Source: a phage
Sequence record: OZ336096.1
Strand: one strand, 5' to 3'
Length of the DNA: 64,000 bases
Shown here: piece by piece, positions 41,328-42,113 of the stretch
How positions within the stretch are numbered: position 1 is the stretch's first letter
How the letters are laid out: each line of letters begins with the position of its first letter
Translations under genes and position numbers: made by a program
Notes under the pieces: generated by a model
What the model saw: the letters and a program-made list of their open reading frames with translations, nothing else
Databases searched by the model: none
Told to the model about the DNA's origin: nothing

Positions 41328-42113
41328 ATGGGTATTGTAAAAATCATCAATGGGGATATCTTCTCAGCATTTGATAAAGGTAAGTTTGATATTATTGGTC
41401 ACGGTTGCAACTGTATGAATTTAATGGGTGCAGGTATCGCTGACAAGATTTCTAAACTTTACCCAAAAGCATATGAGACCGATACAGAAGTTTATCTGTA
41501 TGCAGGTGGCATAGGCCACAAACCCTGTGAAAATTTACTAGGGAATTTCTCTGTAGCACGTTTAGAACAAGGCCGTATAGCTAATCTTTACACTCAGCTT
41601 AAGACTGGTAAAGATGCCCGATACAGTGCTTTAGAGTCATCTTTGAAACAGCTTAACAGATACTGTGAAGTCAATCAGTTGAAGAAAGTTGGGTTACCTA
41701 TGATTGGTGCAGGTATCGGTGGACTAGACCCTCAAGCCGTCACTGTTATCATTAATCAGGTGATGAAGAATGTAGATGTGTATCTGTATGTCTACGAAGG
41801 TGAGATGTACCACAAGTTACGCTCAGGTTGGAAGAACTACTGTGAACCAGAATACTTTGCAGGTGTAGTAGTGTTCACTGATGATACAGTTACCCTCTTC
41901 AGACGAAGAAAAGGCAAGATACATCAAAGTAACCCTCCGGTTGAAAAGATGTCTCTAAGTAACGCTCTAGTTACCCACCTGTCGAAGAGCAATCACAGGA
42001 TTGCAGTAACATTTGGCAGTGATGCAGATACATATATCTATGCAAGAACTGATGAGGATGTTGAGGAAATTTTCTCTTCACCGGAAGTTACCTTCTTAGA
42101 CGCAAAGAACTAA
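41328..42113 (+). CDS. macro domain (ADP-ribose binding/hydrolase) protein
   Basis: 261 aa; IINGDIFSAF..FDIIGHGCNCMNLMGAGIADKI and LPMIGAGIGGLDPQ resemble macro-domain glycine-rich loops; ~100 aa C-terminal extension of unknown type. Confidence 0.55.
   Translation: MGIVKIINGDIFSAFDKGKFDIIGHGCNCMNLMGAGIADKISKLYPKAYETDTEVYLYAGGIGHKPCENLLGNFSVARLEQGRIANLYTQLKTGKDARYSALESSLKQLNRYCEVNQLKKVGLPMIGAGIGGLDPQAVTVIINQVMKNVDVYLYVYEGEMYHKLRSGWKNYCEPEYFAGVVVFTDDTVTLFRRRKGKIHQSNPPVEKMSLSNALVTHLSKSNHRIAVTFGSDADTYIYARTDEDVEEIFSSPEVTFLDAKN

Follow-up and report, generated by a model that had tools for sequence, protein, structure and literature searches.

A complete open reading frame (ORF) at positions 41328-42113 (+) of sequence record OZ336096.1, within the 64,000-nucleotide stretch of phage DNA analysed here (the window), most likely encodes a catalytically competent macro hydrolase, which its active-site signature assigns to the phage Adpp/Poa1p-like clade of the glutamine (Gln)-type ALC1/TARG1 class. 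With moderate confidence, we propose that this predicted enzyme is an Adpp-type phosphatase of ADP-ribose (ADPR)-1''-phosphate, which would supply free ADPR to the NAD+-rebuilding NARP1 pathway and counter aRES-type defence. The source phage is a Felixounavirus (FelixO1-like) with DNA ~94% identical to that of Bas63/JohannRWettstein and some 250 relatives, and the ORF product is 97% identical at the protein level to its ortholog Bas63 gp95 (bas63_0095, "putative phosphatase"); other records annotate the protein as "phosphatase" or "O-acetyl-ADP-ribose deacetylase". The gene belongs to a known and recently characterised kind, and its operon-linked version is already explained in the literature. 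What is new is that the lineage of the NARP1 type phage carries an unlinked gene, Adpp-like by its signature, that is invisible to the published census, that an Adpp-like macro domain is fused to a fast-evolving orphan domain, and that the Gln signature sets the clade cleanly apart from the DarG-type macro proteins of phages. The parts of the gene are as follows.

41328-42113, + strand: complete ORF, ATG to TAA, 261 amino acids; predicted Adpp-type macro domain plus orphan C-terminal domain; PHROG 335 match at 1e-113
41328-41798, + strand: macro domain, residues 1-157, ALC1/TARG1/Poa1p-like class (Gln type)
41799-41834, + strand: linker helix between the domains, residues ~158-169, from structure models
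41835-42110, + strand: orphan C-terminal domain, residues ~170-261, with 6 or 7 beta strands and one helix

The initial annotation had read macro-domain motifs in the N-terminal part of this ORF, and both the ORF and the motifs lie where it placed them (GDIFSAF at residues 9-15, FDIIGHGCNCMNLMGAGIADKI at 20-41 and LPMIGAGIGGLDPQ at 123-136). Pfam Macro (PF01661) scored 32.1 bits over residues 25-141, above its gathering threshold of 22 (E 1.2e-7), and precomputed PF01661 matches are present on 18 homologs. A family profile built from 19 full-length homologs and searched against the PDB retrieved TARG1 as the best match (4e-11), followed by the DarG macrodomains 5M3I and 5M31. In the full-length AlphaFold2 model (pLDDT 84.4, pTM 0.85), a macro alpha/beta domain (residues 1-157) is joined by a linker helix to a C-terminal module rich in beta structure; the helix spans residues 158-167 in this model and is of low confidence when the C-terminal domain is modelled alone. 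Foldseek matched the model to TARG1 (4J5R; E 1e-8, probability 1.00, TM 0.80 target-normalised) and further to Thermus and Mycobacterium DarG, alphavirus and SARS-CoV-2 macrodomains and yeast Poa1p, in each case through the macro half only. The signature residues are H25, N28, C29, G34-A35-G36, N86-L-Y-T-Q90 and I126-G-A-G-I-G-G132, and the phosphate-binding-loop motifs of the macro fold are present as MGAGIA and IGAGIGG. The macro-domain assignment is far beyond chance, and the N-terminal macro domain proposed initially is borne out by Pfam, the PDB profile search and the confident AlphaFold model with its Foldseek matches.

The subclass is marked by a glutamine. In alignments with TARG1, AdfM and the family profile, Q90 is invariant at the position of the catalytic lysine (TARG1 K84, DarG K80), and the position of TARG1 D125 is taken by G131 in the macro protein and by glycine or alanine in its homologs. 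H25 and N28 are invariant across the 19 full-length homologs and 15 diverse macro proteins, N28 also in all 79 sampled IMG/VR loci. The motifs HxxNC, NxY[T/G]Q and IGxG[I/L][G/A]G are common to the macro protein, Adpp, the proteins of Pseudomonas phages K8 and Kremar and all 79 of the IMG/VR loci; because the NxYTQ motif was absent from the pattern used to retrieve these loci, its conservation is independent evidence. DarG and AdfM carry NFPTK and LGxGNGG instead. A neighbour-joining tree, which is rough and without bootstrap support, placed the macro protein within the Gln-type clade and separate from DarG and AdfM. The profile and structure searches that had been recommended for fold and subclass return the macro fold of the ALC1/TARG1 class, and the motifs and the tree place it in the Gln type, apart from DarG.

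Among characterised proteins, TARG1 (OARD1, 4J5R) is the best PDB match by both sequence and structure, but its K84/D125 dyad corresponds to Q90/G131 here, and it is a eukaryotic protein de-ADP-ribosylase. Gln-type macrodomains of the ALC1 class are known in SCO6735 of Streptomyces coelicolor and BT1257 (2FG1), which have Gln/Ala at the TARG1 K84/D125 positions; SCO6735 activity needs both Q85 and the N27 of its HxxN motif, the asparagine locking the glutamine in place. The macro protein shares with these two the H-x-x-N spacing and the glutamine, Gln and Ala/Gly replacing K84/D125, whereas both are bacterial and single-domain, and SCO6735 acts on DNA carrying thymidine-linked ADPR and on proteins. 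In our PDB searches BT1257 appeared only at E ~0.12 with the single sequence and was absent with the profile (E <=0.01), and SCO6735 (5E3B) was unlisted in both. Poa1p of S. cerevisiae (6LFQ/6LFR), from which the "phosphatase" and "Poa1p-like" annotations derive, shares the macro fold (Foldseek E 1e-6, TM 0.72 target-normalised), and the N-terminal 60 residues align by profile; it differs in its weak sequence similarity, its single domain and its place in the metabolism of eukaryotic tRNA-splicing by-products.

The nearest characterised function is that of Adpp. The RES-domain defence protein aRES cleaves NAD+ by phosphorolysis into nicotinamide and ADPR-1''-phosphate, which NARP1 cannot use, and some phages carry a three-gene operon, Adps-Adpp-Namat, termed NARP1-AP (Osterman et al., bioRxiv 10.64898/2026.01.28.702374). 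According to the same preprint, purified Adpp (Vibrio phage Gary KNV71_gp137) converts ADPR-1''-phosphate to ADPR, and the operon overrides aRES, an ability lost in H24A and N27A mutants (Table S4). Its authors cloned aRES from E. coli, listed homologs in Escherichia and Salmonella, and estimated that ~15% of NARP1 phages carry a rescuing phosphatase, based on a census that covered the two genes flanking NARP1 on each side. The K8 protein, which our searches found independently, is listed in their Table S1, whose entries include none from Escherichia, Salmonella or Felix phages; absence of the Felix-type gene is expected because it lies 14 genes (7.5 kb) from NARP1 and the census extended over two. 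Gary Adpp, which is 98% identical to Cody gp176, matched residues 3-154 of the macro protein by BLASTP (27% identity, 53 bits, E 1e-13), and its H24 and N27 align with the invariant H25 and N28. The two proteins share the macro fold, PHROG 335 and the active-site signature including the glutamine of NxY[T/G]Q, and the phage of the window, like those with the operon, also encodes Adps and Namat.

The clade and the NARP1 genes are recurrently linked. The macro domain matched 2,822 of 50,697 phage records (~5.6% of sequenced phages; PHROG 335), and Adps-like genes are found in 2.8% of phage records. Carriers of the clade include T4-like phages, where the gene lies beside vs and tk.3/tk.4, as well as rV5-like phages, Pakpunavirus, Otagovirus, Kuttervirus, jumbo phages and a Bacillus phage, with annotations including "phosphatase", "Poa1p-like" and "macro domain protein". 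The order Adps-macro-Namat occurs in Vibrio phages Cody and Gary, and Adps-Namat-small ORF-macro in Pseudomonas phage K8, with a similar gene order in Pseudomonas phage Kremar, such that the macro gene lies in or abuts the operon in three unrelated phage groups. Among 69 diverse non-Felixounavirus macro loci, 11 had an Adps or Namat/NAMPT-family gene within 10 kb, adjacent in 6 of the 11, and in the neighbour-joining tree these NARP-linked loci are scattered within the Gln-type clade, with at least 9 lineages represented. This enrichment is suggestive, being based on raw counts, with large virulent phages enriched for both genes. A link to NARP3 was rejected, as that pathway contains no macro protein. 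One metagenomic relative of 339 amino acids (P0026) carries a Gln-type macro domain fused to cREC_REC (PF20274, "cyclic-phosphate processing receiver domain"), a predicted architecture which hints that some relatives may handle ADPR cyclic phosphate in addition to ADPR-1''-phosphate.

By analogy with Adpp, we infer that the enzyme would bind ADPR substituted on the 1'' carbon and hydrolyse that bond to release free ADPR. The best-supported physiological substrate would be ADPR-1''-phosphate made by aRES phosphorolysis of NAD+; the ADPR would then be taken by the phage Adps and passed through Namat to rebuild NAD+, and the phage could thereby escape a defence that plain NARP1 cannot beat. The genome encodes both partners.

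30212-31093, + strand: Adps, Prs-like ADPR pyrophosphokinase, first NARP1 gene and proposed consumer of the released ADPR
31139-33840, + strand: Namat, NAMPT-like, second NARP1 gene, present as two partial ORFs (31139-32419 and 32368-33840)

These are orthologs of Bas63 g79 and g80, the experimentally defined NARP1 genes, and confirm the Prs-like/NAMPT-like pair recognised in the initial annotation, with the qualification that Namat is interrupted here. The interruption is a near-perfect internal tandem duplication of ~0.89 kb with 920-nt spacing (copies at ~31481-32365 and ~32401-33285): residues 1-408 of Bas63 Namat map to 31139-32362, and residues 114-593 map again, in another frame, to 32398-33837. 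It was found in 0 of 258 related phage records and could reflect either an error of assembly or a duplication that arose very recently. Another gene upstream, the anaerobic ribonucleotide reductase NrdD, also appears as two ORFs (22491-23690 and 24085-24951, +); the Bas63 annotation joins NrdD from two segments that flank a homing-endonuclease gene.

Several observations weigh against an Adpp-type function for the macro protein. Its identity to Adpp is only 27%, and its extra C-terminal domain of ~100 amino acids is found in no characterised Adpp. The gene stands outside the NARP1 operon in a separate, terminator-bounded unit, beyond the two-gene span of the published census, and is separated from NARP1 by 14 intervening genes (7,488 nt) on the same strand with at least one terminator-like site between them. 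If the Namat duplication is real, the phage may lack a working NARP1, and the enzyme would feed a broken pathway. The closest single-domain relatives, macro proteins of T4-like and other phages with ~35-37% identity, mostly show no NARP gene nearby, and because this holds for most of the T4-like and other single-domain relatives, the clade has, or had, a NARP1-independent role. Finally, in the PhageMaP defence-strain sheets consulted, knock-out of Bas63 g95 carried no fitness cost; neither aRES nor DarTG is in the PhageMaP main text.

A hydrolase of 1''-substituted ADPR with its main job apart from NAD+ reconstitution, possibly tied to RNA-repair chemistry, is an alternative that we regard as possible if unlikely. 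Such an enzyme could clear ADPR-1''-phosphate or cyclic-phosphate by-products of RNA repair, remove O-acetyl-ADPR, or reverse mono-ADP-ribosylation of protein or RNA by host or phage transferases. The clade is present in ~1,000 Escherichia phage records, many of them T4-like, compared with only 178 for Adps, and 58 of the 69 diverse macro loci lack a NARP gene within 10 kb. The macro-NARP clusters of Cody (L007), K8 (L008), Kremar (L009) and Gary (L089) repeatedly have RNA ligase and phosphoesterase/phosphodiesterase genes at a distance of a few kb, which suggests a broader RNA-repair and NAD+ gene neighbourhood; in all Ounavirinae contexts examined, a HAD/PNKP-like phosphatase gene lies ~2 kb upstream of the macro gene; the cREC_REC fusion adds a predicted cyclic-phosphate-processing domain to one clade member; and ADPR-cyclic-phosphate has been detected in Bas63-infected SIR2-HerA cells in published work. 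However, Tpt1/KptA, RNA ligase and ADP-ribosyltransferase (ART) genes are all unannotated in Bas63, the one ART-like hint (gp107) was unconfirmed by Pfam, PDB or profile searches, and the clade's only biochemically characterised member works with NARP1. The gp107 ortholog (45598-46140, +) belongs to a family confined to Ounavirinae, and its N-terminus (CFHGT ... GNFYVYP) recalls H-Y-E ADP-ribosyltransferase motifs. According to PhageMaP, gp107 slightly resembles in structure the domain of RNA 2'-phosphotransferase that binds NAD, and it is conditionally important in E. coli S17-1; our Pfam, PHROG, PDB single-sequence and PDB profile searches gave no match, leaving a phage ART/Tpt1 source of substrate unconfirmed.

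The initial annotation had instead suggested a second ADPR-directed function, for example reversal of DarT modification or degradation of an immune signal; an accessory role in support of the NARP1 module now appears more likely than a separate function of this kind. Its broader view that the macro protein belongs with phage ADPR/NAD+ biology holds. An anti-DarT enzyme would remove ADPR from thymidine in DarT2-modified phage single-stranded DNA, as does the orphan antitoxin AdfM (PhiKZ gp104), which counters DarTG2 and demonstrates that orphan DarG-like phage macro proteins exist and work. The macro protein shares its structural class with the DarG macrodomain (5M31, 5M3I) and TARG1, and a conserved asparagine with DarG and AdfM; DarG ranked first for it in NCBIfam and PADLOC; Gln-type SCO6735, whose Q85/N27 correspond to Q90/N28 here, efficiently reverses the thymidine-linked ADPR left by DarT; and the two-domain layout is superficially DarG-like, such that the C-terminal domain might bind DarT as that of DarG does. 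Nevertheless, we consider this function distinctly improbable, although the SCO6735 precedent still lends it some weight. The match to NF048014 scored 48 bits against an equivalog cut-off of 250 and covered only model positions 4-153 of 338, without extending into the C-terminal domain, and membership in DarG was rejected also on the catalytic lysine (K80, motif FPTK) and the DarT-binding domain. NLYTQ stands where DarG and AdfM have NFPTK, and IGAGIGG where they have LGxGNGG, in keeping with their separate clades. AdfM matches DarG structures at 1e-24, the macro protein at ~1e-3, and the two phage proteins match one another with 26.6 bits (E 2e-4). The C-terminal domain has no detectable similarity to anything, DarG included, and its unconserved charge speaks against a conserved DNA-binding surface. 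That no darT or ART gene is annotated in Bas63 or the window neighbourhood is expected of an orphan antitoxin and not decisive. PHROG 335 was rejected as a functional label, since it holds both Adpp and the DarG-like AdfM. With glutamine at the catalytic lysine position, a wide shortfall in the DarG score, a separate clade and Adpp as the nearest characterised protein, DarT reversal gives way to the Adpp-type reading as the leading explanation.

Degradation or sequestration of ADPR-derived immune signals (Thoeris 2'/3' cyclic ADPR (cADPR), His-ADPR), by 1''-O-glycosidic cleavage or as a sponge, we regard as extremely unlikely. Macro domains are established in review literature to bind ADPR derivatives, some of them (PARG) cleaving ribose-ribose 1''-2' bonds, and the channelling of ADPR derivatives into NARP1 has been demonstrated. 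In NARP1 operons, however, this task is assigned to RyR-domain glycosidases unrelated to macro domains: RyDEP, a parallel accessory enzyme, converts 2'/3' cADPR to ADPR for NARP1, and the signal-degradation idea is therefore realised by a different fold, which displaces it as a leading reading here. Our literature search retrieved no link between the macro clade and Thoeris, and the invariant catalytic-type residues speak against a pure sponge.

Beyond the macro domain, the ~100 amino acids described initially as of unclassified type remain so after all searches. Pfam returned nothing above threshold in this part (a PH match was sub-threshold, E 0.13-0.19), no fold match was found in the PDB, BFVD returned the same protein family only (phage SUSP2), and a profile of the C-terminal domain searched against 1.84 billion representative proteins retrieved its own family, its fragments and repeat artefacts, and nothing else. 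Large multi-stretch matches suggesting wider occurrence were rejected as beta-propeller or repeat/composition artefacts, and two apparent separate carriers of the domain (P0032 and P0041) as fragments of the same family. Modelled by itself, the domain reached a pLDDT of 78. The extension occurs only in Ounavirinae-type phages: every distant two-domain homolog (33-42% identity) is embedded in a syntenic gene order of the Ounavirinae type (rIIA-rIIB ... SLT ... HAD/PNKP-like ... macro), and the non-Ounavirinae loci and Table S1 Adpp entries consulted are 146-211 amino acids long with no C-terminal extension.

Only P174 and G179 are invariant in this domain, with Y236 nearly so, and it diverges about twice as fast as the macro domain (for example, 22% versus 54% identity), without conservation of charge. 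Divergence at this rate suggests that it is a module for protein interaction or regulation. DarT is inhibited by the C-terminal domain of DarG, and aRad1 plugs the aRES active site; a comparable defence-protein-binding role, in which the domain docks on and inhibits an NAD+-consuming effector of the host (aRES or DarT, for example), is conceivable and highly doubtful. The protein would in that case be a two-pronged counter-defence factor, in which an enzyme recycling the product of the defence is joined to a stoichiometric inhibitor of the enzyme that generates this product.

The macro gene occupies the end of its transcription unit, as indicated by two hairpins.

39780-39797, + strand: upstream terminator-like hairpin, between the upstream genes including NARP1 and the spanin-to-macro unit
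42143-42184, + strand: terminator-like hairpin, 17-bp stem followed by a T-run, 30 nt past the macro stop codon

Because the second of these is a strong terminator-like sequence, the macro gene is read as the last of its unit, and the two sites together delimit a ~2.4-kb unit, which it therefore closes, containing two spanins, four small ORFs and the macro gene. Directly upstream, the TAA of a 66-amino-acid CxxC...CxxC zinc-ribbon-like protein (41127-41327, +; PHROG 2210) abuts the macro ATG. This ORF is conserved in Felixounavirus and is not found beside the macro genes of other lineages; a conserved small partner ORF was rejected, as the ORFs that abut the macro gene in Felixounavirus, in other Ounavirinae-type contigs, in K8 and in Kremar bear no relation to one another. 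Further upstream, the "polynucleotide kinase" of relatives (38598-39293, +; PHROG 3970) looks like a HAD/PNKP-type phosphatase only, with a DxDGT motif (ILADIDGVLT) and no Pfam match at E 0.001, and is syntenic in all Ounavirinae-type contigs examined. Elsewhere in the window, a DUF2828/DUF7788 protein (57025-58440, +) is the ortholog of Bas63 gp130, which in Bas63 lies just upstream of the tRNA cluster and is described by PhageMaP as Ro60-like and countering the ppl and hhe defence systems. The macro gene is kept in essentially all of the ~250 Ounavirinae records, and Bas63 g95 knock-outs had positive PhageMaP fitness scores of ~+0.6 to +1.1 in the sheets consulted for laboratory strains and defence strains. 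Retention across Ounavirinae together with dispensability in the laboratory is a pattern typical of counter-defence genes.

The depletion of NAD+ and its restoration are a central field of conflict between bacteria and phages, and NARP1 was discovered in Bas63, the 94%-identical relative of the phage studied here. Should the macro protein prove not to be an Adpp, the function of a very large clade of phage macro proteins, some of them in T4-like phages that lack NARP1, would still await explanation, and in either case the orphan C-terminal domain is a candidate new interaction module. If the macro protein is a working Adpp, the NARP1 type phage, together with ~250 sequenced relatives, would already possess a means of countering aRES, and the share of NARP1 phages with an Adpp extension would roughly double. 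Operon-based censuses would, in that event, underestimate the counter-defence repertoires of phages.

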